The notes beneath the pieces are model-generated. The model worked only from the letters and a program-made list of their open reading frames with translations, was not told where the DNA came from and made no database searches. From assembly GCA_026936335.1 (NCBI GenBank), contig JAPMXV010000020.1:186001-250000 (forward strand): a stretch of 64,000 nt of DNA. The letters are read 5' to 3'. Below are positions 2,994 to 64,000 of this stretch, one piece after another; position 1 is the stretch's first letter, and each line of letters opens with the position of its first letter. Source of the stretch: Mantamonas sphyraenae STR306. Its lineage: Eukaryota; Protista; CRuMs. The translations under genes were made by a program, and so were the position numbers.

Positions 2994-3136
2994 TTTCGGT
3001 GGTTCTGGGTGCGCAGGGTGGTTGTTGATTGTGGGGTGGGTCTGGCAGACGAACAAAGGGTGAGTGAAGTCGGTTCAGCATGTCAATTGCCTGATTCGGC
3101 TGCGCCCGAACCGGCACCAAAAACGCAGAATAGCGG

Positions 3137-35440: not shown

Positions 35441-36421
35441 CTAGAGCGGGTCGGAGGCGAGGTGCTGGACGACTCGGAGAAGGAGCTCGTCTGGAAGCGT
35501 GCTGTACAGGTGAGAGGGCGTGTAGGCGTCCATGGAGCCTGCGTCAAAGAGAAGATCGCGCTCGGTGGTGTTGAGGAGGAGAAGGGTCTCCAGGGCCGTG
35601 TCGAGGGGGTCGGGAAAGAGTGGGTGCGTGCTGGTGGACCACGGGAGGGTGCGTGCAAGGTCTGCGGCACTTGTTTGGGAGTTGATGGGTTTGAGGTGAG
35701 GATCAGCGCCACGTTCAAGGAGGATTTGGATGGCGTCGAGGGAAGAGGCAGCGACAGCGGCCATGAGCGGGTCTGTGCTTGTGTCCGGAGAGGCGTGGAC
35801 GGGCACACCGAGGTCGAGGAGGGTCAGAAGTGTGTGAGTGTCATCTTGAGTGGCAGCTTGGATGAGGGCCTGGGCATCGGCGATGTTGCGTCCGACCGTC
35901 GGGTGTGGATTGAGGCTGATGCCGAGCTTGAGGAGAGCGCGGTTGTTTTGGAGGGCGTCGTCGAGAAGGTGGTGTTTGAAGGGTTGGGAAAAGTCGTTTT
36001 CGTAAAGGTGAATGTACAGGAGGGTGGTGTTGTGTGTGATGAGATCGGCAAGAGCCGGGAGCGAAGCGTCGGAAAGGTGGTTCTTCCAGAGGCCCAAGGA
36101 GAGGACGGGCGGGGCAGAGTCAGACGAGAGGAGGTCTGCGAGTGCAATGAAGCCGGCGTCGCCTATATGGGAGCCGCTGAGGTCGAGCTCTGTGACGGAG
36201 AGGTTTGTGTGGAGGGCGTCGACAAGGGTTGGGATTGCGAGGCAGTTGAAGCGCTCGAAGCGAAGGGAGACAGAGTGGGGGGAGGGTTGATCAAGAAGGA
36301 TGGCGGCCGAGTCGGCGTCACCTGCGTTGAGGGCAAGGAGAAGCGGAGCGGGCTCCTTGCGGAAAGCCAGCATGGGGACGGGGTTGGGTGGGCCCGCGTG
36401 GGTGCACAGAAACTTTGACAT
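35441..36421 (-). CDS. RI-like LRR plus ankyrin protein with a C-terminal F-box/SOCS-like helix (short paralogue)
   Basis: LRRs ('LDLSGSHIGDAGFIALADLL'), an ankyrin-like 'PLMAAV...AIQILLERGADP' and C-terminal 'LPDELLLRVVQHL'. The start could also be ATG 36373. Confidence 0.8.
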   Translation of the reverse strand: MSKFLCTHAGPPNPVPMLAFRKEPAPLLLALNAGDADSAAILLDQPSPHSVSLRFERFNCLAIPTLVDALHTNLSVTELDLSGSHIGDAGFIALADLLSSDSAPPVLSLGLWKNHLSDASLPALADLITHNTTLLYIHLYENDFSQPFKHHLLDDALQNNRALLKLGISLNPHPTVGRNIADAQALIQAATQDDTHTLLTLLDLGVPVHASPDTSTDPLMAAVAASSLDAIQILLERGADPHLKPINSQTSAADLARTLPWSTSTHPLFPDPLDTALETLLLLNTTERDLLFDAGSMDAYTPSHLYSTLPDELLLRVVQHLASDPL

Positions 36422-45500: not shown

Positions 45501-48500
45501 AGATGGCTGCGTTTGTGCAGGAACAGCCTCTGCCGGAGGGGTGCGTGCGTGAGCTGCTGACGCGGCTGGTGGACGAGCTTGAGGCGTCGCCGCTGTCGTT
45601 TGTGGGAGCACAAATGCGAGAGCAGATGAAGTCGCTGGAACAGGTGCTGAGCAGTCCGTCTATGCACAAATCGATTCGTGCGACGGTGGTGGACAAGGTG
45701 TTGTTGGGAGTGGCGAATGTGACGAACGGAGACGAGGTGATTGTGCGTGTGCTGGGTGGATTGAGGGGATCGACGTCGATCCTGGACGCATCTGTGTTGC
45801 AGAGGGTGTTTGCGAAAATGCTGTCGTCGGTGGACACGATGAAGATCCTGCAGGAGCTGTTTGTGGAAATGGCGTCGTCGGTGGTTCCGTTTGCGCTGCT
45901 TGCGCGCATGTTTGACTTGCTGGACAGTGGACACACACGTGTGGCGGAGGCAGAGGGAGGAAACGGATGCTTTGGATCGTGGTGCGGCGGTGCAACGGTG
46001 CAGGAGGCAGAGGGGGCGCCGGCGGAGATGGACGAACAGTCGATGAAGGAGTTTGCCAAGCTGCTGGCGACGACGGCGCTGAAGGTGATGCAGGTGGACC
46101 CGCAGCTTGTGGTGCGTCAGACGGTGGGCGACCTGGCAGCGATCCTGCCTGTGGACACTGTGCTCTCGGACGTGCGGTCACGTATGCGCAACTCAAGCCG
46201 GCACTTTTTCGCAAACCTGAAGGTCATGGCGACGCGTGCGCTGCACGAGATCCCGAGCGAGGAGCCGTTGGCAAAGTGCCGCCGATTGCTTGTGGCAGTG
46301 ATGTCTGCAAACGGGGACGGTGCGGCAGCGGAGGAGCTGAGCCGGGACCAGCTGATGCGCGTGTGTGAGGCCATGGTGGAACGAGTGTTTGAGGCGTTGC
46401 GCAACGTGTCTGGAAGCCGAATGGTGCTTGTGGAAGCACTGGGAGAAGGGAAGGTGCAAGAGGTTGTGGAGCGAGCGATGGAAATGGTGGACGCAAAGGC
46501 ACTTGTGCGTGGGGCGGTTGCGGACGCGTGGGAAACGCTGCTTGCGCCGGTTCTGGAGGAGAGGGAAGAGATGAGCGAGATTGTGGAGGAGGTTGTGCGC
46601 TGGTGGCCGCATATCCAACAGCTGGAGATGAACTACGTGCGCAGCATGCCGCGTGGGGTGAGCGGGGGAGCGGCGGTGGAGCTTGTGCAAGCGACGGTTG
46701 TGGACACGAGGGACGTGATGCTGCAGATGGCGCTGGACGAGATACACGGCAGCGACTTGCCAATTCCGAGTGACAGCGAGGAGGAGGAAGAAGAGGAGGT
46801 GGAGGTGGAGGTGGACGAGGTGGCTGTGGGTGTGGACGAAGCGAGTGAGGAGTTTGCGGCGGAGGACGTCCAGGCAGTGATGAGGCAGTGTGTATGCGGC
46901 GCAGATGTTGCTGGACGCCTGTTGAAGGCGCATGGAGGAGAGGTGGAGGCGGCGGTTGCGGGTGTGCCTGTGCTGAAGGCGGAGGAGGTGCCGTACGCGA
47001 TGAATGTGGAGGGCCTGCAGGAGAGTGTGATGGAGGACCTGAAGGTACAGCTGTTTGCATGCATGTCGGATGCGTGGATGGTGCCGAGCTCGTTGGTGGA
47101 CGTGTTTGAACGGTTTTGGGAGGTGTTTGCACGTGCGGTGGACGAGGGGGCGGTTATGGAAGAGGTGAGCCGTGCTGTGACGGCCGGGGTGGTGAGTCCG
47201 ACGGGGTGGAGTGTGGATGCGGCCAAGGGCACGGTGCACACGTGTGTGGTGAAGATGTACGAGCAGGTGTTTGACGTGCGGCGGGTTGTGGAGAATGCGT
47301 CGGAAGATGAGGTGGAACAGCTGGTGCCGTACCTGGGAGCGGTGTTTGTGGAAGAACGGCTGGAGACGGCGCTGTCTGTGGTGGCGATGCCGACAGGGAG
47401 CGGAAACGCGACGAATCTTGTGCATGGGGTGTTTGCGGCGGTGGGAGACACGGTGTCGAAGGAGACGATGGAGAGTGCGGTGGAGCAGCTGATGGAGAAT
47501 CTGGGGATGTCGATGCTCACGGATGTGGTTGCGCCGGTGGACGAGTCGATGCGGTCGGAGAAGTACGGAGCGGCTGTGTCGCAGCTGTTTGTGGAGCAAG
47601 TGAACAGGCTGCGACGTGGGCTGGAAGGCGGGCCGCTGCACTTTTTGAGCGAGGCTCTGGGGACGGAGGAGGTGCAGGGACAACTGGAGCAGGTTGTGCC
47701 TGCGGTGCTGAGCCGAGTGATGACGACGGCGGTGGGGCTGCTGTCGAAGCCGGAGGCGTACGAATTTGTGCGGAGCAAGGTGCTGGGAGTGGGAAGTGCA
47801 TCGCGTCTGGACAGCGTGAGCTTCACGGAAGCGCTGTTGCGTGTGGTGCCGCCGGAGGAGCTTATGCACGAGTTTATCCGCTCGCTTTTTGTGATGGTGT
47901 CGTCACCGCTGGAGATGATTGCGCATCAGAAGCTTGCGCCCGTGCTGGCGTCGCTGAACGAACGCCGCGTGCGCAAGGACCTTGTGCGGCGCGTGCACCA
48001 GACGCAGGAGCAGCTGACGGCAAACCTGTTTGCAAAGTTGGAGGAGCTGCGTGGGATTGTGCCAAGCAGCGAGGCGAGCGTGGACGAAAAGACACTGCCT
48101 GGCCCGCTGCAACGTGTGTGGGGCCTTGTGCCGTGGGACGTGATGGACGCTGAGCTTCGGGGACGTGCTGTGAAGAGCATGCACGAAGGGCTGATGGATG
48201 CGGTGATGACAAAGGAGAACGCACACACGGCGTTGCGCGGGGCAAAGGGGGGCCTGCCGGGGGTGGTTCGAGCAGCGGCGATGGCAGAGCCGTTGCACAT
48301 GTGGGGGCGTATTGTGAAAGAGGCGGTGGTGCCTGTGTTGGAGCAGGGTCTGGAGTCGGAGGCATGGATGAGTGCGCTCGGGGCAGAGTGGGCACGGCTG
48401 GCGGACGAACTGGACTCGGAGAACAAGCGAAAGTACAAGGCTCGGCGACAGTTGCGCTCGACAAAGACGTCGCACAACCTGAACCGCAGGAGCCGAGGGG

Positions 48501-50551
48501 ACTCGCTGGAGAAGGAGCGCAAGAAGGCCAAGGTTGTGTATCGGGAGACGATTATGGCGCGCACTGTGTCTCTGCTGGACACGCTTGCTCGCAAAGCCGG
48601 GCTGGCTGCGCTGGAAAACATCGAGATGGGAGAGGAGGCTGTGGAGGAGATGCGTGTGGAGGTGGCCGGGATCGTGGAGGGGCTGTTTGAGGAAGTGGGT
48701 GCAGAGTACCTGCGTGCGCGCAGCGACGGATACGGTTGGCTGTATGCGCTGTACCGTCTGGAAGCGGACCAACAACAGACGCTGGGCCGTCAGCTGGCCG
48801 GTGTGCTTGCGTCGTTGCCTGTGTTGGGGGAGCGCATTGCGGATTTGGTTGAGCGGGACGTGTGCGACCCATCGGACGTGCTGTGGGCGTTGCTTGGCGA
48901 AACGTGGCACGCAAGCATGAGTGTGCCGTTTGACGAAGAGACGGGCTACATCGAGAGCGGGTTTGTGCTGCCTGTGCTGACGCACGATCGTTTGTGGAGC
49001 GGAGTGGAGAGCGTGGTGGAGATGGTTGCCGGGAAACTGTGCGGGATGGACTCGTTGGAGCCGACGCTGAAGCGATTCTGCAGGTACGTGGCGGGCGGAG
49101 CAGGTGCAGTGCAGCTGACGGAGCAGGACATCTTTTGGGAGGAGAGCGATGACTTTGTCGAGGACATGGAGCGGTGGTACACGAGGAAGTTTGCACACGG
49201 AGGAGTGAACGAGGAGATGCGAGAGACGATGCGTGGTCTGGCTGTGAGGAGGCAGGAACAGGTGCTGAGCGACCGAGATGAGATGGATGGGTGGGCAAAG
49301 GAGTACGGGGTGCGTGACCCGGAGGTGGGTGTGTGCCTGCACTATCTGGATGAGACGCTGAAGGGGATGTGGGGGCTGTGCAGCAAGGCGGAGCTGATCG
49401 AGTGGATTGCGGAGGATGCGCTTCATGCGCTGCAGACGCCGAGCAGCAACGGGCCGGGAGCGGTGGAGTATGCGCACGAGATGTGGAAGAGCATGGAGAG
49501 CGGGATGGCCGACTGGCTGCGTCGTGCAAACACACAGTTTTGGGAGGTTGCGTGCGCAGAGGTGGAGGCGAGGCTGCAGCAGCTGGGACAAGAGGTAACG
49601 CAGCTGTTGGCGGTGCAGGGGATCCGTGCGGAAGAGTTGCAACTCGAGAGGCTGATGCAAGGATGGCTGGGGCAGGCTGACCTGCGGGGACTGTGCGTGG
49701 CGATGCTACAGCGGTCGTCGTATGCGCTTGTGCAGCAGACGCTGTTGGGAAGCGGCCCGGCACTGGTGGGTGCGGTGAAGGCGACGCTGACGGCGCCGGC
49801 AGACGGGGAAGTGGACCAGAACATGGTGCAGCACGCGTGGGAGATGATCAAATCGAACAAGAAGGCGATGGGAGAGATGTTGATCAAGGGTAGCCGGGAA
49901 CTGCTGAGCAGGTACGCGGCGGAGAGCCAGGGGATGGTGCGTGGGATGGTTGCACAGAGCAAGCTGTCGATGCAAGCGGTGGCACAGATTCTGGGACCGG
50001 AAGCGAGTGGCCTGCTGGACGGCGTGCAGAGCAACCCGTATGTGAAGATGGTTGCGCGGCTGCTGGTGGACGTGAAGCGAAAGCTGGGCAATCCGCCGAT
50101 TGCAGATGCGCAGTTGCGGGTCAAGGTGGCGGAGGTTGTGTTTAAGCGGCTGCTGAAGCGTGTGGAGGAGATCTTTGGGGTCAGCCAGGGGCAGATCGTG
50201 AAGACGATGTTTGTGGCGCTGGGCACGCTGAGTGGGGTGTTTGTGTTTATCTTTTTCGGGATCTCTGCGGTGAGCGGGCCCGGGACGGTGTTTGCCGTGG
50301 TCAACACGGCCATTGTGGGTGTGGCAGGCTTTGCAAACAACATGAAGGACAAGAAGGGGGACGACGACCAGCTGACGGTGAGTGACGGGGATGTGCAGAG
50401 TGGTGGCGGTGGGGTTCTCATGCAGATGGTGCAGAATGCGATGGAGGGCTTGGTGGAGGAGGGAGGGGTGGTGTGGAATGGGATCGTCGATGAGATCTGC
50501 GCTGCGGTGAGGGAGGACGACGAGATGCGGGGGTTGTTGGGCGGAGTTTAG
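36562..50551 (+). CDS. Giant (~4600 aa) uncharacterised multi-pass membrane protein; intron 38322-38439; 5' end uncertain
   Basis: ORFs 36562-38325 and 38417-50551 join in frame through a GTAAGT...CAG intron (YG|YVP). The second exon is 12.1 kb. TM clusters lie near the N-terminus and at the C-terminus. Confidence 0.8.
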
Positions 50552-52602
50552 GGGTTTGGCTGAATGAAGGATAGGATGCGATGGATGAGCTCGTCTGGGA
50601 GGGTCATCCACAGGGCTGTGGGTGTGTAGGCGTCCATGGAGCCGACGGTGAACATGATGTCGCGCTCGGTGGTGTTGATGAGGAGGGCGAGTTCGATGGC
50701 GGCGTCGGTGGCGTCGTTGTGCACAAGCCAGTGCGTGGAGTGGGACCAGTGGTGGGATCGTGCGCAGGAGATGGCTTGTGGGGATGGGCGAGCTCCCCAT
50801 TCGCGCAAGAGATCGATCGCTGCGTTGCTGTGGTTGTCGACAGCTGCGTGCAATGGAGACGGATCAGTGCGCGCGTTTGCAGAGACGCCCCAGTCGTGGA
50901 GTGTGTGCATGGAGGATGTGTCGTTTCGGGAGCAGGCTTGCACAAAGAGAGTGGCTTGGGAGAGATTGCGCTGGACGAGCTGCTGGACATCGTCGTTGGC
51001 GATGCCCAAGAAAAGGCAGGTGCGGTTGGATTCAAGGGCTTGAAGCAGTTTCGCAATGCCTGGCTTGCCGATGTGTGCCCTGTGTCGGTCTAGACGCAGC
51101 TCCTGGAGCGTGGTGTTTGAGACAAGGACCGAGGCCCACGCTGCGGCCAGGTCGTTGTCGATGCGGACCCCTTGCAGGGCAAGAACTTCCAATGTTGTGT
51201 TTTGAGTGAGAGCATCGGCTATGGAGGAGACGCCATCAGCACCAAGGTCGTTCTCGTCCAACAAAAGCTTGCGCAAAGAGGTATTGTGAACGAGGGCCGC
51301 CGCCAGGGCCTGTGCGCCCATGTCGTGGATGTGGTTGCGGTCCAATCGGAGCGTGTGCAGGGTGTGGCGATGTTGGATGACGTGTGCAATGGCCTCTGCA
51401 CCGCAGGGAGAGAGATTTGTTTGGCCCATGTCGAGGATTCGTACGGAGTTGTTTTCGAGCAACCCGTCGGCCAGAGCGCACACATCGTCATCGTCGAGAG
51501 GGCAGTGGCGGAGATGTAGTGATGTGAGCGAGGTGACTTGCTTCAGCGCGGAAGCAAGCTGGAAGCAGAGAGTGCCGGAAATGGGGAGTCTGTTTGCAGC
51601 AAGGGAAGAGAGCGTGGAGCCAAGGAGCAGCGAGTGCAGTTGCGGCATCTCGATAGGGTTACCGCTTAACATGAGGCTCTTCAGCGTGGTGTTGTTCTCG
51701 AGAGCCGCTGCCAGTTGGGATTTGTCGTCGGAGAAGGAGTTCCAGCCCAGGTCGAGCTCGGTGAGGGAAGAGTTGTCCTGCAGGGCGTTCAAGATGAGCC
51801 CTGCGCCTTCACAAAGCTGATTGGCACTGAGGTGAAGGGTTTGAAGGGATGTGTTTTGGGTGAGGACCTGCGCAAAGGCTGGGGCGCATGTGGCGCCGGC
51901 TTCGTTGACGTTTAGATCCAATGAAAGGAGTGTGTGGTTGTGCGTGAGTGCGTCTGCAAGTGCCATTGCGCCTGTGGATTTGATGCGGTTGAGCTGGAGG
52001 TGGAGAGAGCGGAGAGTGTAGTTTTCGCGTAGGGCAGCGGCGAGAATGGTGGCCCCTTTGTCGCCGATGCCAAGAGAGGACAGGTAAAGGTGCCGGAGAG
52101 TGGTGTTTGCGGAAAGCTGGATGGCCCACGCCTGTGCGGCGGCTGTGCGACCGAGATTTGCGCCGAGATCGATCGTTTCCACAGACGGAGCGAGCAACGG
52201 GGCCAAAGCGGCGACTGTGTCTTCGGACAACATGTTGCTGCATAGGGAGATGTGGGTGATGGTGTGTTTGGATGTGGACAGGGCTTCGGCGAGACGGAGG
52301 ACGGCGTTGTCTCCCGGCGTTGTGCCGACAAGATCCAGGTGCTGGGGATGCAAGGTGAGATGTGAGAGAGGGGAAGGGGGAGGGGAAGGGGGAGGGGAAC
52401 GGCAGGGGTAGCGGGTTACCTTGTTTGTGGTGGACTCGAGGGCAGTGCGCAAGTCGGCAAGGCTCGTGTTGGGTTGCCCTAGCAAAGACTGAATGGAGTC
52501 CTGGAGGGACTTGGGGAGGGGGGGGTGGGGGGGTAAGGAGATGGGGAAATGGGGGGGGGGGGGGGGGCGGGGGGGGAGGGGAAGGGTGGGCAGACTGACC
52601 AT
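50548..52602 (-). CDS. RI-like (NLRC3-type) LRR plus ankyrin protein with a C-terminal F-box/SOCS-like helix (long paralogue); probably two 5' introns
   Basis: Many 28-aa LRRs ('NTTLRHLYLSSLGIGDKGATILAAAL'), 'SPLHAAV' and C-terminal 'LPDELIHRILSF'. Probable donors are ATG|GTCAGT and AAG|GTAACC. Confidence 0.82.
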   Translation of the reverse strand: MVSLPTLPLPPRPPPPPHFPISLPPHPPLPKSLQDSIQSLLGQPNTSLADLRTALESTTNKVTRYPCRSPPPSPPPSPLSHLTLHPQHLDLVGTTPGDNAVLRLAEALSTSKHTITHISLCSNMLSEDTVAALAPLLAPSVETIDLGANLGRTAAAQAWAIQLSANTTLRHLYLSSLGIGDKGATILAAALRENYTLRSLHLQLNRIKSTGAMALADALTHNHTLLSLDLNVNEAGATCAPAFAQVLTQNTSLQTLHLSANQLCEGAGLILNALQDNSSLTELDLGWNSFSDDKSQLAAALENNTTLKSLMLSGNPIEMPQLHSLLLGSTLSSLAANRLPISGTLCFQLASALKQVTSLTSLHLRHCPLDDDDVCALADGLLENNSVRILDMGQTNLSPCGAEAIAHVIQHRHTLHTLRLDRNHIHDMGAQALAAALVHNTSLRKLLLDENDLGADGVSSIADALTQNTTLEVLALQGVRIDNDLAAAWASVLVSNTTLQELRLDRHRAHIGKPGIAKLLQALESNRTCLFLGIANDDVQQLVQRNLSQATLFVQACSRNDTSSMHTLHDWGVSANARTDPSPLHAAVDNHSNAAIDLLREWGARPSPQAISCARSHHWSHSTHWLVHNDATDAAIELALLINTTERDIMFTVGSMDAYTPTALWMTLPDELIHRILSFIQPNP

Positions 52603-52752
52603 GGGTGGGGGGAGGTGGTGGTGTGGTTGGGGCAGCGGGTGGAGGCAGCGGGGTGATGAATGGCGTTGTTGGGAAATACGATGTGGCTTGTGGTGCTCTG
52701 TTGACACGTGTGGATGCAGGGTGACGGTGGTGGTGGTCGTGGGGGGTGCGCA

Positions 52753-55700
52753 ATGGGGTTCAAGAAAATTATGTGGGCGCGGCAGGTTGTTGGGGTGGTT
52801 GTCGTCGCTCTCGTGGTGTGTTGCGCACGCGTGTCGGCGTCGTGTGAGCAGGAGAAACAGATGGCGGCAGTCGCACGTGCCCTGGGCCTCCCGGCGCTCG
52901 CGGAAGGCACGTGCTTTTGCACGTTTGGGCCGTGGGAAACGACACTGGCCTGCTCGGGGAAGTACAACGCCTCAGACGCGTGTTGCGGTACCACCGAACC
53001 GTCATTGGCTATTACTCTACGCACAGTGAACATCAGCAAGTCGGGTATTGACGCGCTACAGGCTCTCCCGCGCGTGGAAACGCTCTCGTTGCTGGGCCGT
53101 TCCGTCAACGCACTCCCAGAGTGGCTTTGTGAGCTTGGCAACCTCACCACGCTGATAGTCCGAACCACAGACATCTCGTATATCGCGGATTGTGTCGGAA
53201 AGGACATGCCGCTTCTGTCAACACTCACTTTGTACGACGCAAGGCTGAGCACAATCCCAGAGCCGCTGACCAAAGCCAGCAAGCTGCAATCACTGGACAT
53301 GAGCTTCAATCAGCTCCAGAGTATTCCAGGCACCATTTCGGGGATGTCGTCTTTATCCAGCCTCGTTCTTTCCGAGAACCAGATCGACACTCTGCCGCTG
53401 TCGCTTCGAAATCTCACGTCGCTGACAAGCTTGTACGCGGACAACAACCATTTTACTATGGTGCCAAAGGTCATCTCCTATATGCCGTTTCTTCAGACGC
53501 TGGATTTCTCGACGAATCACATCACGTCACTGGAGAACTTGGCCGTCAATCCGGAAACATCCACACTGCGTTTGCCCTCCAACCAGCTGTCGAAGATTCC
53601 AGAGGTTCTGTGCACATGGTCCAAACTTCAATATTTGGACATCAGTCAGAATGCCATCCAGGATCTACCTTTATGTGCGAGCATGTGGTCGGCCATACAA
53701 ATCCTGAATCTCGACAGGAACAAGTTTGCTCGTGTGCCCGACGTCATGCGCACCCTACGCAATCTGACAGAGTTCAACATGGACACGAATTCTCTCCTGG
53801 AGCTTCCGACCTGGATAGGTGAATTCACAGAGTTGAAATCGCTGTCGGTCGTGGACAATCGAATCACCACTTTACCGGGCGAGTTTTCCGGGTTGAAGAA
53901 GCTACGCACGATTGCTGTGGCGAACAACAGACTTTTTGGCCTACCGGACTCGATTTGCATGTTGCCGAGTCTGTGGTCGATGGACGTGTCTCAGAACAGG
54001 CTCTCGTCCTGGCCAGCGCACTGCTTCGACCATACGCCCGTGCTGCAGTTCCTCATCGCGAACAACAACCATTTCACAGAGCTGCCTGCGAGCATGGCCA
54101 ACGCGAGCAGGCTCACAAGCATCACCTTCTCCCACAACCAGGCACGCGAGTTGCCCGAGTTTTTGGCGCAGCTGCCACTTTCGTACTTGGACGTCGGGTA
54201 CAACCAACTGCGCGAGCTTCCGCCTTGGCTCGCAAACTTGACATCCATGCAGTATCTGGACGTCTCATTCAACCCGATTGAGGGCGGTGTGCCCGAGTCG
54301 TGGGCTGCTCTGACACAGATCACGACCCTGGGGTTGTCGGGCCTCGGGTTGGAAGCATTGCCTGGTTTTGTGACAGAGCTATCCATCGTGAGAGAACTGT
54401 TTGTGTCATCCAACAGGTTGACCTCTCTGCCTGACCAGCTGGGTGACCTCGCACAGCTTTCCACCGTCGTCGCTGAAAACAACCGGCTGACCTCAATTCC
54501 CACGTCACTGGTCAATCTCAAGCTGCTGTTTCGTCTGGATGTGAGCAACAACTCGCTTTCGGCGTTGCCCAAGTTCACACTGCTGCAGTACCTCCTGTTC
54601 CTTGATTTGTCCCAGAACTGCTTTCGCGAGTTGCCCGCCGACCTCGGGGTGGTCATGCCCAATATGGACATGTTGGATGTGTCCAAGAACAAGCTGACTG
54701 TGCTCCCAGATTCGCTGTCAAGGATGTGGCGCCTGAAGAAGCTGATTGTCACCGACAACATGCTGAAGGATCTGCCAGATCTGTCCTCGCTGACCTTCCT
54801 GGATTCACTGTGGTTCAGCAACAACAATATCAAGGAACTCCCACGTCTCTCGACAGAATCTGTGCTCCAAGCGCTCTTTGCGTCGAACAATCAGCTGCAA
54901 GTGCTGCCAAACTCGCTTTGGACCGTCAAGGCGATCACCACGGTGCATCTGGACGGAAACGAGCTCACTGGACTTCCAGAACACATTGAGCGGGCAACCC
55001 AACTGCGTACCTTGCATGTACAGCGCAACAACTTGACAGCGCTGCCACCCGGATTGTGCAACGCCACAAACTTGGTGAACCTGGATGCATCGTTCAACAC
55101 GATTGCCGCGTTGCACGGTGATTGGTCATCCATGACCAAGCTGCAGCAGCTGGCGTTGAACAACAATGTGCTGGGCACAGACGTTGTGGCGCGTCTGATG
55201 CGCATTCCGTCGCTCATCTCGCTCGACCTGAGCCACAACAGGCTGCGTGGAGTCATGCCGGCACTTCCGGAACACAGTTTCCCGGCGCTCTCTTCTCTGG
55301 CCTTGAACGACAATGGGCTATCTGGGCCCGTACCGGGCGAGTGGCTGCAGCTGCCGTCGCTGCGGTCGCTGCAACTTGAGCGCAATCAGCTCAGCAGCGT
55401 CTTGGCAACTACTGTGTTTGTCTACAACGAATACGTGACACAGTCGCGTCTGGAGAGGCTGGTTATGCATCATAACGCGCTCACGGCGATGCCAGACGGC
55501 CTGCGGTCGTGGGAGACGCTCACTCACCTTGACCTCCATGCGAACCAGATTCGGGGCGCGGTTGACTTTTCAAGTTTGCCGCCCAATCTGGTGTACTTGG
55601 ATGCGTCGCAGAATGCAGTGAGCTCGGTGGCGCTGGATAGCGTGCTGGGCACACGCACGCTGGCGCTCGAGTTCATTGATTTGTCGCAAAACGAAAACAT

Positions 55701-57660
55701 GGTCGGCTCCGTTTCGGACGCCGAGTTTCCGTCGCTGGAGCAGTTTCTCGTGTACGACACGCGCGTGAGCGGAACGATGGACTCGTGGAAATCGGTCGGC
55801 CGACTTCAGCGCTTGGACATTCACAACACACACGTGTCTGGCGGCTTTCCACACACGTTTCGGGAGACCACAAACCTGTGGTATGTGGATGTTCGCAACA
55901 CGGACATGGACTTGTCGCGCGGGGAGACAAGCTTTCTGCAGGCGTCACCGACGCAGAGTATTGCGTTTGGCAACGTGTCATGCCCGGTGTTGCTGACGCA
56001 GAACAGGCCGCTGCACTTTTTCTACCTGCCGAGCAACTGGATCGAGCAGTGCCGGTGCGCAAATGGGTTCTTTGGGCGCAAGGAGCGTTGTTTGCCGTGT
56101 GCAGAAGACTTTGCCGACTGTCAATGCAAGCAAGGACGCATCCGTGGTTGCCGTGTGGTGGCTGCGCCCAATGCCACGCAAGACTTTCTGGCTGTGCTTC
56201 CATGCCCTGTGCCGGCAGCTTGCTCGGACATCCAGCAAGACAACACCCCTGGCGCGGTAGACCAGGCATTGGCATGTGGCCAGGGCTATGCCAACGGCTC
56301 TCGTCTGTGCAGCGAATGTGCACAGGGATTCTTCAAGTCGGGGCGCGTGTGTGAAGAGTGCCCAGGCCCGGTGGAGATTGCGCTCACGGTGCTGCTGTAC
56401 GCAGTCCTTCTCGGAATGTTTGGCATAACCGTGTATCAACGGAAACTGTACCGTGGTGGCGAAGAGGCGACGATGAAGATTGTGCTCTTCTTCTGGCAGA
56501 TCCTGGCCACAATCGAGCAGTCGTCGATCAGCTTGAAGACGGCATTGCACCGTGTGCACACACAGCAGCATGCGTCGTGGTTGCACGTGGTTGTCTCTCA
56601 AGCCATGGTACTTGTGCATCGCGTGGCTTCGAGCATCAACCTGTCCATCGCTGCGGTGCAATGTCTTTTTGCGCCTCCTGCAGGCTTCAGCGAGCGATGG
56701 GAGGCCGAGTTTTACACAAGCAACACCATGATTGTGCCTGTGGTTGTGATTGTGGGAGTTGGGTCCCTGTGTTGGAGAGCATGGCACCGATACAGGCGAC
56801 GTGGGCACCACTTGCTGCAAGAAGAGGACGAGGTTGTGGCCACGCGCCTGCAGACTCTGGCAGGCATGCTGCTGTTTGCACTTCATGTGGCCTATGGACC
56901 CATTTTGCTGCAGTCACTGAGCTTTTTGGCGTGCACAGACTCGATCACCGGAGTTGGGAACGAACAGGGATGGGTCTACCTCAACCAGTTTCCGTTCCTG
57001 TTGTGCCACGGCGGAGAATCGCGGGAACTACTGGGTGTGCAGAGCACCGCGTGGGTTTTGCTTGTTGTGGTGGGTCTGGGTCTGCCCTTGCTGGACGCGG
57101 TGGCCTTGTGGTGGATAGGGCGACAAGACGCAGCGGATGAACCGTGGGCGCAGACCGTGTTTGGCTTCCTCTACGCGTCGTACAAGCGCGACTATATGGC
57201 GTACGAACTGGTGGTCATGCTTCGGCGCGCTCTCGTGACCGTGCTCGTCACAGCCGTGCCGTTCTACGCGCAGCTGACCTTCTTTGTGCTGTTGTTCCTG
57301 GTGCTCGTTTCATCCACCTGGTTCCACTCGCGCTCCCAACCATTTGTTCGTGACTTGGACAACCGCATGGAAACCTTGAGTCTGTACACGCTGCAGACGG
57401 TGTTTGTGACGGGCGCTGCAGTGACATTGAGTCGCACACGGTTTGACAATGCCGCGGTGGACGTGCTCGCGCTGGGCGTGGTGTTGATAACAGCGGCGGT
57501 GGGGATGTTGCTGTTGGTGGCCATGGCATCCAAGGCAGTGTCGAAGGCTGGGGATCGTTTGGCCGGAGCTGCACGGACCGCCTGGAGGGGATTCCAGAGC
57601 GAGGGACGTGGACGCGGGGTGAAGATGGGGAATCTGAAAAACTCGTTGTTGGGGAGGTGA
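52753..57660 (+). CDS. Large LRR receptor-like protein: signal peptide, >30 LRRs, Cys-rich repeats, multi-TM C-terminal domain
   Basis: Intronless ORF with an LxxLxLxxNxL array, 'CRCANGFFG...C', 'CGQGY...LCSECAQGFFK' and a TM region 'FGFLYASYKRDYMAYELVVMLRR...QPF...DNRME'. Confidence 0.88.
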   Translation: MGFKKIMWARQVVGVVVVALVVCCARVSASCEQEKQMAAVARALGLPALAEGTCFCTFGPWETTLACSGKYNASDACCGTTEPSLAITLRTVNISKSGIDALQALPRVETLSLLGRSVNALPEWLCELGNLTTLIVRTTDISYIADCVGKDMPLLSTLTLYDARLSTIPEPLTKASKLQSLDMSFNQLQSIPGTISGMSSLSSLVLSENQIDTLPLSLRNLTSLTSLYADNNHFTMVPKVISYMPFLQTLDFSTNHITSLENLAVNPETSTLRLPSNQLSKIPEVLCTWSKLQYLDISQNAIQDLPLCASMWSAIQILNLDRNKFARVPDVMRTLRNLTEFNMDTNSLLELPTWIGEFTELKSLSVVDNRITTLPGEFSGLKKLRTIAVANNRLFGLPDSICMLPSLWSMDVSQNRLSSWPAHCFDHTPVLQFLIANNNHFTELPASMANASRLTSITFSHNQARELPEFLAQLPLSYLDVGYNQLRELPPWLANLTSMQYLDVSFNPIEGGVPESWAALTQITTLGLSGLGLEALPGFVTELSIVRELFVSSNRLTSLPDQLGDLAQLSTVVAENNRLTSIPTSLVNLKLLFRLDVSNNSLSALPKFTLLQYLLFLDLSQNCFRELPADLGVVMPNMDMLDVSKNKLTVLPDSLSRMWRLKKLIVTDNMLKDLPDLSSLTFLDSLWFSNNNIKELPRLSTESVLQALFASNNQLQVLPNSLWTVKAITTVHLDGNELTGLPEHIERATQLRTLHVQRNNLTALPPGLCNATNLVNLDASFNTIAALHGDWSSMTKLQQLALNNNVLGTDVVARLMRIPSLISLDLSHNRLRGVMPALPEHSFPALSSLALNDNGLSGPVPGEWLQLPSLRSLQLERNQLSSVLATTVFVYNEYVTQSRLERLVMHHNALTAMPDGLRSWETLTHLDLHANQIRGAVDFSSLPPNLVYLDASQNAVSSVALDSVLGTRTLALEFIDLSQNENMVGSVSDAEFPSLEQFLVYDTRVSGTMDSWKSVGRLQRLDIHNTHVSGGFPHTFRETTNLWYVDVRNTDMDLSRGETSFLQASPTQSIAFGNVSCPVLLTQNRPLHFFYLPSNWIEQCRCANGFFGRKERCLPCAEDFADCQCKQGRIRGCRVVAAPNATQDFLAVLPCPVPAACSDIQQDNTPGAVDQALACGQGYANGSRLCSECAQGFFKSGRVCEECPGPVEIALTVLLYAVLLGMFGITVYQRKLYRGGEEATMKIVLFFWQILATIEQSSISLKTALHRVHTQQHASWLHVVVSQAMVLVHRVASSINLSIAAVQCLFAPPAGFSERWEAEFYTSNTMIVPVVVIVGVGSLCWRAWHRYRRRGHHLLQEEDEVVATRLQTLAGMLLFALHVAYGPILLQSLSFLACTDSITGVGNEQGWVYLNQFPFLLCHGGESRELLGVQSTAWVLLVVVGLGLPLLDAVALWWIGRQDAADEPWAQTVFGFLYASYKRDYMAYELVVMLRRALVTVLVTAVPFYAQLTFFVLLFLVLVSSTWFHSRSQPFVRDLDNRMETLSLYTLQTVFVTGAAVTLSRTRFDNAAVDVLALGVVLITAAVGMLLLVAMASKAVSKAGDRLAGAARTAWRGFQSEGRGRGVKMGNLKNSLLGR

Positions 57661-57708
57661 GAGTGGAGTGGTTGGGTGAGGGTTCGGGTGCGGGAATGAA
57701 ACGGTTCA

Positions 57709-58165
57709 TTCATTCGAGGCGCTGGCGTTTGGAGGAGGAGGAGGAGGAGGAGGAGGAGGAAGGGGCTTTGCGCTTGGGCAGGGTGAAGGAGGGGATGGGG
57801 TAGGCGTTGACGAGTGCGGAGGTGGTCGGACGGGTGGTGGTGTGGGGTGTGATGCGGTCGATGAGGGTGTGGAGGAGGGTGTGCAGTGTGGCGTCGCTGG
57901 GTTTGGGGTTGTCGAGCCAGGCGATCTTGAGGGAGAGGGAGGTGACGCCGCGGGCGAGTGTGTTCTTGATGGTACCTTGCACCTGCTTGTAGGTGAGGCG
58001 TGGTCTGAGGAGGCGGAGAAAGAAGGCCAGGTCGACAGGCGGCACGCCAACGTTGCCCAGCGCCAGGATGATGTGTCGCACCAGGGAATTCAGGCTGCCG
58101 TTGTTGATCAGCTCACGCAGTGCCTGGTGCTCGTGTGAATGCTGATGGCGAGGGTGCATGGCTGC
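57709..58165. repeat. Direct repeat copy 1 (~450 bp); matches 62159-62606 and partly ~63400-63734
   Basis: Nucleotide similarity is visible from 'ttcattc(g/a)aggcg' through 'gctgatggcgagggtgc(a/t)tggctgc'. Confidence 0.92.
57710..58159 (-). CDS. Short single-domain copy of the repeat-domain gene at 62160-64000; intact small gene or 5'-truncated remnant
   Basis: Near-identical to the last ~150 aa of the 62160 ORF. It has ATG at 58159 where the other copies have AAG, and ends 'PKRKAPSSSSSSSSSKRQRLE'. Confidence 0.5.
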   Translation of the reverse strand: MHPRHQHSHEHQALRELINNGSLNSLVRHIILALGNVGVPPVDLAFFLRLLRPRLTYKQVQGTIKNTLARGVTSLSLKIAWLDNPKPSDATLHTLLHTLIDRITPHTTTRPTTSALVNAYPIPSFTLPKRKAPSSSSSSSSSSKRQRLE

Positions 58166-58209
58166 ACAAGGGCAGCACCCTTGCATCAGCTGAACAAATT
58201 GTCCCCATT

Positions 58210-61200
58210 TCATTCAACCTCCACCACCACCACCTCCTCATCATATTCTTCACGCGAGGGTGCCCCCCGGAAACTGGCAGATGACCCAACATCGGAATGC
58301 TCATCGTTCCCTGTCACCGGAAACTCGATGTTGGACAGAGGTCCCAACGCATTGTCACCAAAGAATCCCCTCAACTGCTCGTACCCGACCACAAACAGAC
58401 CGCACATCTTGACTGTCACTCCCCCCTGCACCACCGCCGTGTGCTGCCACTCCGCCAACTCTTTCTGCAGATCCCGATGGATGTGGTTCATCCCCATGTT
58501 GGCCACGAGTGGTTTGTGTCGGGGTTCTGTGTTCAGAGCCATCACAGCATCCATCATCGCCATTTTCAGAGCCTCTCCAAACGAGAGTGCTTGGTGTTTC
58601 CCGGTTGTCGTCACAATGCCCAGAACAACGCTGATCTGCGTTGCCCCCATGCGACGTCCAAGCTGCGCAATCTGCTCCCTGGCCGAGTCCACCTTGAGAA
58701 ACTCATCCCAACAGTGGAGCTCATTCAATGAAGTGCTCTGTGCGTAGTGCTTGCACTGGATACACTCCATCAGCAGATGGTCCTGGTCTCCAGCAACTTG
58801 AAAAAACGTGAAAACATCTGCAAAGGGCGCACCCCTTCCGTTGATGTACACACGATTGACTTGCGGCTGTGTAGATTTGAACGCATCTTTGACATACCTT
58901 GTTTCACCTTCTTTCATCTTTTTCAGACTGGCTTTCATCTTGTCAATGTGAATATCGTCGACCTCAGCTTCCATCTTGTCGACCTCGGCTTCCATCTTGT
59001 CGACCTCGGCTTCCATCTTGTCGACCTCGATTTGCTTCGTGTCATAATCGCTGCCCCGAGGGAATCGGTGCTTCATCGCCACCGGGATGAGGTAATCGCC
59101 ACCCAGATTCGTTCTGATTTGAAAATCAGCCGTTCTGAGTGGCACGCTTGCCCCGCTATTCCAAATTTTCCAGTACGGCATTGTCCCGTTCTCATTGCAC
59201 CGGTACTGACCCAGGTACAGCTTGAGGGCCACAAACTTGGCACAAAATTCTTCAAACCCGGGCCCGTCACGGAGCACAACAGAGTCCATGTGCCAAGTGC
59301 GTGTCCAGTCGGTCGTCAACGCCACCAAGGTCCCGTCCACACTGAAACAGCCACCTCGCTTGGTGACAAGCCCATTGTTTTCAGCATCTGGGTGCTCTTT
59401 CTCCAGCTCATTCAGGGGCAGGTTGAACAGCTCCCCGGAAAGCAGTTTGTTTGAGTTGTCTTCGTCGAAGGATGAGTGCCACTTCCTGGCGAGACTTTTG
59501 ATGGCATCTTGCGCCAATCTCCGGAGGTCATCATGCTGATCACGTTCCAGAGCTTCCTTGAACTCGGCGTTGTTCTTCTTTGCCCGATTGCAAAATCGAA
59601 TCATTGCCAGCGGAGACCCACCAAGCATGACGGACAGGCGGTTGCACTTATCCAAATCGATGTCAATGCTGAGAGCTGTGGCCAACTGCTGGAACATGGC
59701 ACCAGTGAACCACTTCATGTGGAAAGGGAAATCCCCTCCTCCGCTTGATTTCACAGCCTGCTGCTTGGCAGCATGCACCAAGCCAGCGACTGCAAAAACA
59801 AGCCTGTAGTTCAATACTTGGTGGACGCCCGAAAGCTTGTCCGTGATGATCTTCAGTGCATGTTCCTTTTCCTGTCCAACTTTCGTCTCGCGCAGTTCCT
59901 GGCTCTCGTCAATGGTCACCAGCACCCACGCGTCCTCGACACCTAGTTTCTCCAAACCCACGGTGACGACATCTTCAATGCAGATCCGGTACTGCTGCAG
60001 CACCTTGTTCGCAAGTGAACTCGTGAGCACCTTGGTGGTTGTCCAGCCCATGAGCATTCGCAGGGCAAAAATCGTCTCCAGCTCATCTATGGATCGGTTG
60101 CTTTCGGTTGTGGCACTGTTTCCGCAGTTGTACGTCACGTGGAACACAAGCACGGACTTCTTCAGCACAGTCTCAAGCACCGACGGAAGCTCAAGCAGAA
60201 GTCGCGTTTTCCCCGATCCAGGCACAGTGACCGCAGAAAACACACCCATCCGCGGTTCCCGCAGGTCATTCTTATTCATGCTCAGGAAGTGGCGGAACTG
60301 CCTCTCGTAGTCATCCCGCCCAATCCACTCCTTGGTAGGCGATTCCAGCAGTCCGAGAGTCCCTGCCCATGGGCGAACAAAATCATCACGCAATTCCATT
60401 CCCAGTTCCTCCAACATGCGTTTCATGTCCACGAACGTGGTCAGTACTGTGCGCTCTGTTCATGTGGAATGTGCAATCAGCAAGAAGACGCAGGGCCGGT
60501 GTGAGCGCTCCTGCGCTGACGTGCCTGGCGTGACACCCTCCCACGACCACCACACACTCACCTCCCCATTTCTCTTGTGCGTTGCTCGCCCCTCGCCCAG
60601 TTTCTGTAGCCGTGGTGAGTGGTAGTGGCGTGTGAGTGGGCCGGGGACTGCACCAGCAAAGGATGCTGACGCGTGCTGGATGAGTGGGTCCCACGCACGA
60701 CCTACCTGGTCGTTTCCCATTGCCACCTTCAGTGAAACGTGTTGATGGCCCTTCTGTGTGCGTGGAGTGCATCAGAACCGGTGTGAGCGTGTGGGTGATC
60801 ACGCTTCCGGGCCAATTCCGCCCAATTCGCTGACGTGACACCCTCCTACACCCACCACACACTCACCTCCCCAATCCCCTTGTACGTTGCTCGCTCCTCG
60901 TCCAGCTCCTGTGGCCGTGGTGGGTCGTGGCGGCGTGTGAGAGGGCCGGGATAGTGCTGGGCACAGGGAAAATGGAACTCACCTGGTGCGGTATGATGCT
61001 GGCTCTGGGGAGTGTTTCCCAGTTGGTGCTTGTGTACCCTCTTCCTCAGATCATTCACGATCCCGGAAATGGTCAGCACTTCTTGTGCTGCGGCGTTCGC
61101 CAGCGTTTCTGCCCTCGTGCATGCATTCTCTGCACGTTTCACACGACCTTGCAGTCTCTGCTCATTTGGAGACTCCTCCAGGGCAGTGTACGCATTGTTC

Positions 61201-62021
61201 AGCTCCGTCTCAGCACTCGCCAGCTTCGTCTCAGCACTCGCCAGCTCCGTCTTGGCACTTGCCAGCATCGTCTCACCTTTCAGCAACTCATCTCTCTCTC
61301 CATCGTTTGTGTTGTTCGCCCCTCGCCCAGTTTCTGTGTTCGGGGTGGGTCATCATGGCGTGTGAGAGGGGCGGAAGGTGCTCGTTTACGTAGCAAGGGA
61401 TGACTGGGTCCCTCGCACGACCTACCTGCTCCTTTCCCTTGCTGAGACTCAGTGGAACCCGTTGAAGACCCCACTGTGTGCGTGGAGAGCATCAGAACCG
61501 GTGTGACGGGTGAGTGATCACGCTTCCCGCCAATTCGGCCCATTCCGCTGACGTGTCTGACGTGACGCCCTCCCACGACCACCACACACTCACCTCCACC
61601 TCCATCTTGTGTGTTGTTCGCCCCTCGCCTAGTTCCTGTGTTCGGGGTGGGTCATGATGGCGTGTGAGAGGCTGGGCGGATTCGAGCAATCAGGAAAACT
61701 CGGCAATCAGGAAACTCAGCAATCATCAGGAAAACCGCAATCAGGAAAACTCGGCCAACGAGGCCCGAACAACGTACTGATGGCATCAAAGGGCTCGCCT
61801 TCTTGGATGAGAGATGCACTTTGCAACTTCTCAACTGTGGTGTCGTTGGCCAGGAAAATCTCTTGCCATTCCAACCTGACCAATTCCACCTCTTCGCCCG
61901 TTTCCACCTTGTACATTTGGGCCACAGATTTCAGAATGTGCCCCACCGTCATTCCCTTCACCGTCGACACCTCGAAGAAGCGGTCCTCGACTTTGACACT
62001 GACGACGGCAGGCATCGACAT
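58210..62021 (-). CDS. Crinkler (CR)-like effector: Ubl-like header, mini-exon linker with coiled coil, P-loop NTPase, REase-like domain. Exons 61778-62021, 61594-61635, 61426-61473, 60983-61333, 60867-60908, 60706-60753, 60562-60603, 58210-60446 (~1017 aa)
   Basis: All seven introns are GT-AG and phase 1, and the joined frame is open. Walker A is 'PGSGKT', followed by 'VTYN' and Walker B 'LVTIDESQ'. The nuclease-like motif is 'NGRGAPFADVF...IQCKH'. Confidence 0.78.
58955..59030 (-). repeat. In-frame 21-bp tandem repeat encoding (EVDKMEA)x3+
   Basis: 'cttccatcttgtcgacctcgg' is repeated. Confidence 0.9.
60520..61670 (-). repeat. Tandemly duplicated exon-intron modules (four 42-nt type-A units and two 48-nt type-B exons with homologous introns)
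   Basis: 'ccaccacacactcacctcc', 'cacgacctacctg', 'catcagaaccggtgtga' and 'gcgtgtgag' recur on the plus strand. Confidence 0.88.
61685..61754. repeat. Short degenerate tandem repeat (~17 bp, gcaatcaggaaaactc, x4) in intron 1 of the CR-like gene
   Basis: Read directly from the sequence. Confidence 0.8.
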
Positions 62022-62159
62022 AGTAGGTCTGTGCACGCAGGCGCAACGACCCGATTGTCGTTGTTGTCGGCGGGGCGAAGAAGATGGACTTGATCGGAGG
62101 TGGGAAGGTTGGGTGGGGAGGGGAGGGTGGGCTGGAGGCTTTGCATGTGAATGGGTGGT

Positions 62160-64000
62160 TCATTCAAGGCGTTGGCGTTTGGAGGAGGAGGAGGAGGAGG
62201 AAGGGTCTTTGCGCTTGGGCAGGGTGAACGAGGGGATGGGGTAGGCGTTGACGGCATCGACGGTGGTGGGACGGGTGGTGATGTGGGGTGTGATGCGGTC
62301 GATGAGGGTGTGGAGGAGGGTGTGCAGTGTGGCGTCGCTGGGTTGGGGGTTGTCGAGCCAGGCGATCTTGAGGGAGAGGGAGGTGACGCCGCGGGTGAGG
62401 GTGGCGCTGATGGCACCAACCACCTGCTTGTAGGTGAGGCGTGGCCTGAGGAGGCGGACAAAGAAGGCCAGGTCGACAGGCGGCACGCTAATGTTGCCCA
62501 GCGCCAGGATGATGTGTCGCACCAGGGAGTTCAGATTGCCGGTGTTGATCAGCTCATGCAGTGCCTGGAGCTCGTGTGTGTGCTGATGGCGAGGGTGCTT
62601 GGCTGCGCGTGTCTTCATGTGTGCCAGCAGCGTCTGGAACTCCCGCGCCGTGCAGCTGCTACGCTCGTCGCCGTGATTAGCAATGTTCCAGCCGCTGCGC
62701 ACGGACTCAGGGTGCCAATTGTCCACCATGGTGGTGGTGAGTTGGTGGTCGTAGTCGCATTGTGTCCAGTGTGGGTCGCTGTCGTTGTCAGCAGGGCGTC
62801 GTGCTTTCTGCAGCCACAGCTGGGTCTCCTTGTGCTCCTTCCAGGTGGTGGGATGGGGCCTGGCACCCAGAGTGTCCATCTCTGTGATCAGCAGGTGGAG
62901 GAGGGCGTAGTTGGGGTCGCCGTGGTCGTGTGGTTCCTCCAGCCAGCACACCTTCGACCCAGCCTTCGTCACACCCATGGCCAGACCAGCGTTACTGATG
63001 GATTTTCTGCACTCCTGTTGATCCACTTCACGGCCGAGGAGGGTGAGGCAGAAGGCCATGTCGCCCTGGGAGAGGGGAATGTTGCCCAGAACGAGCTGAA
63101 TCTGTCGGACCAGCGTGTTCAGGGTGCCATGGCAGATCACAACACGCGCCTGCAGGCTCATGAGGTCAGGGATGTCGTCGATGGGATGCTCGTTGGCCAG
63201 GTTGTGCATGTGGTTCAGCAGTTCCGTGTGCTCCTTCTTGTTGCTGTGACTGCGCTCGCTCTTGCGCCAGGACGTCCAGCCACTGCGCATAACGCCATCT
63301 GGCAGTCCATCCTCCACAGCCAGCATCTCCTCCTCTGTAGGCTCGTGCAGAACAAGCTCGGGGATGTCGAGGGTGTTGACGGCGTCGCATGTGATGGGAC
63401 GGGTGGTGATGTGGGGTGTGATGCGGTCGATGAGGGTGTGGAGGAGGGTGTGCAGTGTGGCGTCGCTGGGTTTGGGGTTGTCGAGCCAGGTGATCTTGAG
63501 GGAAAGGGAGGTGACGCCACGAGTGAGGGTGGCGCTGATGGCAGTCACGACCTGCAGGTAGGTGATGTGTGGCCTGAGGAGGCGGACAAAGAAGGCCAGG
63601 TCGACAGGCGGCACGCCAACGTTGCCCAGCGCCAGGATGATGTGTCGCACCAGGGAATTCATGCTGCCGTTTTTGACCAGTTCACGCAGTGCCTGGTGCT
63701 CGTGTGAGTGCTGATGGCGAGGGTGCTTGGCTGCGCGTGCCTTCATGTGTGCCAGCAGCGTCCGGAACTCCCGCGTCGTGCAGCTGCCACGCTCGTCGTT
63801 GGGATTGTGCGTTGCCCAGCCACTGCGCACAGATTCAGAATGCCACGCGTCCACCTTGTTGGTGGTGAGGTGGTGGTCGTAGTCGCATTGTGTCCAGTGT
63901 GGGTCGCTGTCGTTGTCAGCAGGGCGTCGTGCTTTCTGCAGCCACAGCTGAGTTTTCTCGTGCTCCTTCCAGGTGGTGGGATGAGGTCTGTTGCCGAGAG
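62160..64000 (-). CDS. Uncharacterised tandem repeat-domain protein with a 1128-bp/376-aa period made of two homologous ~190-aa domains; 5' end beyond the window
   Basis: The frame is open to the window edge. 62283 matches 63411 and 62761 matches 63889 (offset 1128). The C-terminus is NLS-like: 'PKRK...KRQRLE'. Confidence 0.75.
   Translation of the reverse strand, partial: LGNRPHPTTWKEHEKTQLWLQKARRPADNDSDPHWTQCDYDHHLTTNKVDAWHSESVRSGWATHNPNDERGSCTTREFRTLLAHMKARAAKHPRHQHSHEHQALRELVKNGSMNSLVRHIILALGNVGVPPVDLAFFVRLLRPHITYLQVVTAISATLTRGVTSLSLKITWLDNPKPSDATLHTLLHTLIDRITPHITTRPITCDAVNTLDIPELVLHEPTEEEMLAVEDGLPDGVMRSGWTSWRKSERSHSNKKEHTELLNHMHNLANEHPIDDIPDLMSLQARVVICHGTLNTLVRQIQLVLGNIPLSQGDMAFCLTLLGREVDQQECRKSISNAGLAMGVTKAGSKVCWLEEPHDHGDPNYALLHLLITEMDTLGARPHPTTWKEHKETQLWLQKARRPADNDSDPHWTQCDYDHQLTTTMVDNWHPESVRSGWNIANHGDERSSCTAREFQTLLAHMKTRAAKHPRHQHTHELQALHELINTGNLNSLVRHIILALGNISVPPVDLAFFVRLLRPRLTYKQVVGAISATLTRGVTSLSLKIAWLDNPQPSDATLHTLLHTLIDRITPHITTRPTTVDAVNAYPIPSFTLPKRKDPSSSSSSSKRQRLE

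Follow-up and report, generated by a model that had tools for sequence, protein, structure and literature searches.

The stretch of DNA analysed here, referred to as the window, covers 64,000 nucleotides of Mantamonas sphyraenae STR306 (contig JAPMXV010000020.1, positions 186,001 to 250,000), and its right end carries a nuclease-type gene bracketed by two copies of a repeated sequence. Three co-oriented minus-strand open reading frames (ORFs) are found there, as the first-pass annotation had described: a long member of a repeat family, called X; a gene predicted to encode an NTPase joined to a restriction endonuclease (REase)-like region, called CR after the Crinkler-RHS-type proteins; and a short piece of X. 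It is reasonably probable that, within a cluster of X, CR took the place of the 5′ portion of an X gene and that recombination between X repeats later multiplied it, and the bracket around CR is most likely a by-product of its residence in a large X family. In the proposed sequence of events, a spliced gene for a CR-type ATPase plus restriction-like nuclease would have landed recently in a cluster of the high-copy, lineage-specific X genes, where two X genes followed one another and the downstream one lost its 5′ part to the newcomer. The bracket would then consist of the whole 3′ end of the upstream X gene and of what remained, on the 3′ side, of the downstream one. X copies, whether tandem or dispersed, would subsequently have undergone unequal or ectopic exchange and so carried CR to about three places. 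The CR protein would act as proposed for other CR proteins: controlled by the NTPase, its nuclease would cut nucleic acid, directed at invaders inside the cell or at other cells. X would be a nuclear family of tandem helix-turn-helix or winged-helix-like proteins, reshuffled by gene conversion and with no special tie to CR.

Linkage and copy number were read from contig depth and junctions in four public runs, X1 to X4, which belong to one shared study and possibly include the source of the window itself. None of them is recorded as an RNA run; X4 is treated as cDNA solely because it is the one run with all seven GT-AG joints of CR, the alternative being an intronless DNA copy. The parts of the locus around CR are as follows.

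62160..63998, minus strand: long copy of X, open at the window end, 612+ amino acids, consisting of a B tail and A1, B and A2 units (ORF list).
62159..62606, minus strand: upstream arm of the direct repeat, the 3′ end of the long X (self-alignment).
58166..58209, minus strand: linker of 44 nt from the CR stop to the start of X similarity, carrying a short hairpin; an ATG lies in frame at 58186 (bridged by X1–X4 contigs).
57710..58165, minus strand: X fragment, the downstream repeat arm; a 5′-truncated A unit in an open frame, with a tail resembling a nuclear localisation signal (NLS) (ORF list, alignment).

The two arms, 62159-62606 and 57709-58165, align over 457 columns with 90.2% identity (E 3e-180), which bears out the earlier description of X 3′ ends of about 450 bp enclosing CR as direct repeats. 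The short copy is thus a real repeat, but it is not the copy of a whole gene: it comprises the 3′ two-thirds of one A unit and the basic tail, and is cut at 58165, where other X contigs run on as ordinary X sequence. The basic patches noted earlier at the C-terminus of X are present as KRK...KRQR. CR was also correctly described as more A/T-balanced than its neighbours, with a GC content of 53.5–53.9% against 61.5% and 63.1% in the two X ORFs.

The plus strand is G-rich over almost the whole window, with a skew at four-fold sites of up to +0.86 and genes of both strands included. At these sites the plus-strand skew of CR exon 8 is -0.25, the sole negative value among 19 ORFs, whereas the other 18 range from +0.16 to +0.86, the X fragment having +0.63 and the long X +0.37. 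The reversed skew of CR, set against two X ORFs that follow the window, marks CR as the probable newcomer and X as the resident, and this composition suggests a recent arrival of CR. The G-over-C skew of the window may itself reflect the direction of replication or a nearby chromosome end.

The reversed skew and lower GC would also fit a CR that is still a self-mobile NTPase-REase element targeting X genes, and NTPase and REase modules have been linked to transposons (PMC5289972). This is very unlikely: CR has seven introns and a candidate header, and its copies number only about three and have their breakpoint, at 58165, in common. Direct repeats of 9 bp that coincide with the X stop (62167) and the CR stop (58217) could be taken as an insertion mark and are probably due to chance. 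No longer match was found between the compared stretches of 155 nt and 111 nt; each of the two ORFs finishes in Glu-stop, and beyond the 9-mer there are 44 nt that do not belong to X. Terminal inverted repeats (TIRs) of at least 9 bp were not found between the insert ends, the longest inverted match being 8 bp and of low complexity. Long terminal repeat (LTR) ends were likewise not found, the repeat arms being coding sequence at 90% identity that lacks TG...CA. As far as the window shows it, the locus lacks what defines an LTR element or a TIR composite transposon. The hairpin at the CR-X junction was considered as a Helitron end and rejected, as the window contains 102 perfect 6-bp stems and no CTRR follows the hairpin on the gene strand.

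CR is a real, intact gene. It consists of eight exons (62015-58210, minus strand) separated by seven GT-AG introns, all in phase 1, and has 1018 stop-free codons when spliced. Contigs that skip the seven introns are seen in X4 and in none of X1–X3. Its exons are as follows.

61778..62015, minus strand: exon 1, 79 codons, candidate header (X4 joint).
61426..61635, minus strand: micro-exons 2 (42 nt, 61635-61594) and 3 (48 nt, 61473-61426), encoding a Gly/Ser/Thr-rich linker (X4 joints).
60983..61333, minus strand: exon 4 of 351 nt, which is predicted to encode a coiled coil and contains a 21-nt repeat (61200-61275) (X4 joints).
60562..60908, minus strand: micro-exons 5–7 (42, 48 and 42 nt), in a duplicated intron-exon block (X4 joints).
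58210..60455, minus strand: exon 8, 2246 nt, NTPase and REase-type motifs, with a 21-nt repeat at 58957-59029 (X4 joints, motifs).

Exon 1 has a maximum hydropathy of 1.04 and no stretch resembling a signal peptide, and the family-library matches of exon 4 are weak and of the coiled-coil type only. The block at 60562-60908 is 75% identical to 61308-61671. The region 60456-61777 thus holds five phase-1 micro-exons of 42–48 nt from duplicated intron-exon blocks, forming a Gly/Ser/Thr linker around the coiled coil. Exon 8 encodes a Walker A motif GSGKT (60219), a Walker B motif LVTIDE (59922) and the REase-type motifs FADVF (58824) and ECIQCKH (58767). The latter pair is putatively labelled D...(E/Q)xK, after the core of the PD-(D/E)xK fold.

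A HMMER search with CR against a representative library of 1.84 billion proteins gave four matches. Two of these, P0004 and P0006, were dropped since their similarity is confined to a short VDKMEAE repeat. The other two, P0003 and P0005, are Mantamonas plastica proteins (EukProt) and are the only full-length relatives found; they are only 24–26% identical to CR, and no coiled-coil exon is seen in them. They are collinear with CR in the NTPase and REase halves and keep Walker A GxGKT, Walker B DE and FADV...MECxQCK. Both halves of CR beat 300 of 300 shuffles against the Mantamonas proteins (z 10–19; N-half z 10–13). The conservation of GSGKT and LVTIDE in the relatives marks the NTPase domain, for which the AAA_16 and AAA_19 matches of the relatives are weak and under the cut-off. 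FADVF and ECIQCK are also conserved, and a PDB profile search gave no profile or structure match for the nuclease fold. In the ESM Atlas, the relative P0005 scores 0.94 against a cluster named ‘Crinkler family protein’ (PF20147 in 45% of 483 members) and 0.98 against unnamed eukaryotic clusters, a placement that is the relative's and not CR's own. No family library (Pfam, NCBIfam, PHROGs) names CR, and a word-based search, viral loci, metagenome loci and a PDB profile search gave no match to it. The motifs kept in the Mantamonas relatives and the Crinkler-family cluster near one of them sustain the earlier CR-like NTPase-REase reading, and CR is likely, on this indirect sequence evidence, a member of the CR (Crinkler-RHS-type) NTPase-REase proteins. 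The class names CR-REase and NTPase are found in PMC6131194.

The ubiquitin-like (Ubl) header of CR/CRN effectors, named in the first-pass annotation, was not confirmed in CR: exon 1, which is spliced to the NTPase exon, has no significant Pfam or PDB match. The motifs LxLFLAK and HVLVxxP are absent from exon 1 and CR has no PF20147 match. Judged by these motifs and the missing PF20147 header, CR is not a CRN effector in the strict oomycete or fungal sense.

CR and X differ widely in copy number. Depth was measured against the gene next to the X fragment, which serves as the single-copy yardstick.

52705..57660, plus strand: leucine-rich repeat (LRR) and membrane protein gene, single-copy neighbour outside the unit, ending 49 bp from the X fragment (ORF list; contig depth).

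The contig depth of CR in X1 is 95–169, or 1.7–3.0 times that of the LRR neighbour, and in X2 it is 2.2–3.5 times. At 58414-58633 in X1, a contig that differs from the window at 17 of 220 nt reaches depth 48 and the window type about 105, which points to two CR variants in about three copies. The CR copies are 92–99.7% alike. The extra depth might instead come from alleles or a collapsed assembly and not from separate loci; the CR depth ratios do spread from 1.7 to 3.5, and at 59889-59914 the sole contig in each of the four runs has 4 differences from the window. This is highly improbable, because a single stretch of 3.7 kb, free of differences, holds the LRR neighbour at depths of 57.2 (X1) and 38.5 (X2), and the depth of the CR variant, 48 (X1) and 46.6 (X2), adds to that of the window type. 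A tandem array collapsed in the assembly would agree with copying between X repeats and not with this alternative.

X had been regarded as a gene in two copies and is in fact a high-copy family with about 50 or more copies of the A unit. Between 834 and 3115 contigs per run were placed on 57560-62330, with nearly all depth on the X arms, and at site 58018 in X the summed depth in X1 reaches 97,953. Summed depth is inflated by overlapping contigs; divided by 31, the largest arguable overlap, it gives about 55 (X1) and 49 (X2) copies of the A unit. The true count may be much larger; some divergent sites reach only 1,908–4,490, so that the figure is a rough bound. X thus outnumbers CR at least about 15-fold.

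The junction from CR to the X fragment is bridged by contigs in four of four runs, in a variant form in X1, X2 and X3 (13, 13 and 19 differences) and in the window form in X4 (0 differences). It is therefore not an assembly artefact, the possibility raised earlier for the short X copy. On the side of the X fragment facing the LRR gene the sequence is single-copy, and upstream about two copies share the CR spacer back to an X stop; X4 contigs give no cover in the 62040-62199 bin between X and CR, which is uninformative. CR is tied to X, but most X copies are not tied to CR. The linkage to X is seen in at least two of about three near-identical CR copies only, and no related CR/X loci were found in viral and metagenome contigs. 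As the CR copies are 92–99.7% alike, the shared linkage represents one junction that was copied and not an independent, recurrent pairing. Of the co-duplicated or mobile cassette proposed in the first-pass annotation, the co-duplication stands, with two CR variants sharing the downstream junction and about two copies the upstream spacer. The notion of a dedicated or self-mobile X-CR unit finds no support, given the at least about 15-fold excess of X, a linkage that is one event copied and the lack of transposon ends. In X2 and X3, contigs that join one repeat arm to the other were considered as an empty-site allele and rejected, since the joints have short sides and other X copies explain them.

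In X, A units alternate with B units, each about 188 amino acids long, with an A+B period of 1128 bp and the NLS-like KRK...KRQR tail at the end. A and B units share about 35% amino acid identity (score 176 vs 53, the best of 500 shuffles), and the internal repeat of X, 63360-63990 vs 62232-62862, is 89.6% identical. Many X variants are present in the spliced run X4 as well. Protein searches with X gave no match among proteins of 207–660 aa, proteins of 330–2000 aa with alignment, the ESM Atlas, viral contigs, metagenomes, PDB sequences, Pfam, NCBIfam, PHROGs, Foldseek (PDB, viral) and VIA; the 1.84-billion-protein library was searched with CR, so the blank for X covers the other collections and is no proof of novelty. 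Profiles of X and CR show no relationship to each other. The model of the X unit is all-helical and possibly DNA-binding, and this weak model suggests that X may be a family of tandem helix-turn-helix or winged-helix nuclear proteins. The ratio of non-synonymous to synonymous substitution rates (dN/dS) is 0.92–1.30 among A units and 0.97–1.30 for the X fragment, which shows no purifying signal. The X fragment is moreover a mosaic of A1-like followed by A2-like sites, and such a patchwork with dN/dS near 1 is what gene conversion among many copies would give. At 57899-57902, single contigs in X2, X3 and X4 exit an X unit into long unrelated sequence, which hints at further truncated or interrupted X copies.

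X might be a mobile element of an unrecognised class, or a non-autonomous part of one, with two X copies mobilising the DNA between them as in a composite transposon. The very high copy number with many variants, dN/dS near 1, the 5′-truncated copy and the all-helical, possibly DNA-binding unit would agree with this, and the fish Crinkler-like AACRNL genes have spread with flanking transposons (PMC12957317). Such a role is nevertheless rather unlikely. No similarity to transposase, integrase or reverse transcriptase was found in the 612 aa of X seen (the 5′ part of X lies beyond the window), and Pfam, NCBIfam and PHROGs gave no transposase match. In addition, there is no TIR between the insert ends, the arms do not have the form TG...CA, the upstream arm is merely the end of a longer ORF, and the skew of X is that of a long-term resident.

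Several points weigh against the replacement of an X gene by CR and its copying through X repeats. The X fragment may be a gene, since it has an open frame and three in-frame ATGs. One of these, ATG 58159 in the context GCAGCCATG, arises from a change that neither of the window's other two A units carries. Gaps of only 3 and 41 bp between co-oriented ORFs in the window likewise allow the fragment to be a gene. Furthermore, Cif and Medea systems work with REases akin to CR effectors (PMC11342252), and the transposon-flanked spread of AACRNL in fish (PMC12957317) belongs here too. An argument that there was no room for a promoter was rejected on account of the same 3- and 41-bp gaps, and the ATGA stop-start overlap was rejected as a special feature, as 4 of 19 ORF ends show it, among them those of both X ORFs.

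In a toxin-antidote pair, the CR nuclease would be the toxin and the adjacent X or the 149–167-aa fragment, produced from the same locus, would neutralise it, much as CifA neutralises the REase toxin CifB, the unlinked X copies forming an orphan, immunity-like bank. This analogy would account for the X junction shared by two CR variants and for the fragment being open, with ATG 58159 and the NLS-like tail kept, and bridged to CR in the spliced X4; CR-type REases also underlie CifB and Tribolium Medea1 (PMC11342252). The pairing is unlikely, as X is at least about 15-fold in excess over CR, the linkage is one event copied among CR copies 92–99.7% alike, the fragment shows no purifying signal (dN/dS 0.97–1.30) and the ATGA overlap is not special. 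A selfish cassette, in which the CR toxin captured a truncated X member as a linked antidote produced from the tail end of the toxin locus and the pair spreads by recombination into the many copies of X, is quite unlikely. An antidote role of the fragment, if borne out, would offer part of an explanation for the tolerance of free-living eukaryotes towards CR nucleases of their own, and protists would then have a counterpart to Medea and Cif.

CR proteins with NTPase+REase C-termini were described by Zhang et al. 2016 (via the review PMC5289972). CR shares with them a small N-terminal candidate domain, P-loop NTPase motifs, a helical linker and a putative REase-type D...QxK motif, as well as a eukaryotic origin; such proteins are reported also from free-living eukaryotes, and no signal peptide is present. 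In contrast, CR has no LxLFLAK/HVLV in exon 1 and no PF20147 match of its own, and it has a coiled coil, five duplicated micro-exons and unrelated high-copy flanks. The RHS genes of Trypanosoma cruzi encode CR-type proteins and form a multicopy nuclear family that spread via unequal crossing-over, ectopic recombination and gene conversion (PMC7563717). In that case the many copies are those of the CR-type gene itself, whereas here they belong to X and CR is the rare passenger. Wolbachia CifA/CifB and Tribolium Medea1 (PMC11342252) have a CR-related REase, and the Cif nuclease gene adjoins one for a non-enzymatic helical repeat protein. However, Cif is a conserved bacterial two-gene unit with tested rescue, while X, as a putative partner, greatly outnumbers CR and shows no detected HEAT similarity. 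Teleost AACRNL (PMC12957317) is a Crinkler-like gene of a free-living eukaryote copied with neighbouring repeats; it encodes an ADP-ribosyltransferase toxin on hAT/mariner elements with TIRs, in contrast to the NTPase-REase here, for which no TIRs were found. No CR NTPase-REase gene with an adjacent partner gene was found in the literature covered (titles and abstract openings, mostly of non-subscription papers). On the likely reading, CR adds to the CR-type NTPase-nucleases a gene that is spliced and divergent and comes from a eukaryote with little sampling; it was seemingly caught soon after its arrival, hitchhiking on a repeat family. X is the less ordinary part, with no detectable homologue, seemingly 50+ unit copies and many variants in the spliced run.

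The rest of the window is eukaryotic and gene-dense and carries a Sec24 orthologue. An Rfam scan of 50000-64000 gave no match. Within the LRR-membrane gene, contigs of X1, X2 and X4 join over a 238-bp skip at 56060-56299 (short side 25), perhaps derived from a paralogue. An open frame of 3997 aa at 38558-50551 (plus strand) has no Pfam match at E 0.1, hydrophobic ends and an acidic helical interior, and its stop overlaps that of a convergent LRR gene. The paralogous LRR genes at 35441-36421 and 50548-52971 (minus strand) share a 130-nt repeat with 73% identity, and their tails are presumably ankyrin-like. Packing is tight, with 41 bp (21732/21774) and 3 bp (35437/35441) between co-oriented ORFs and 26 bp (32648/32675) between convergent ones.
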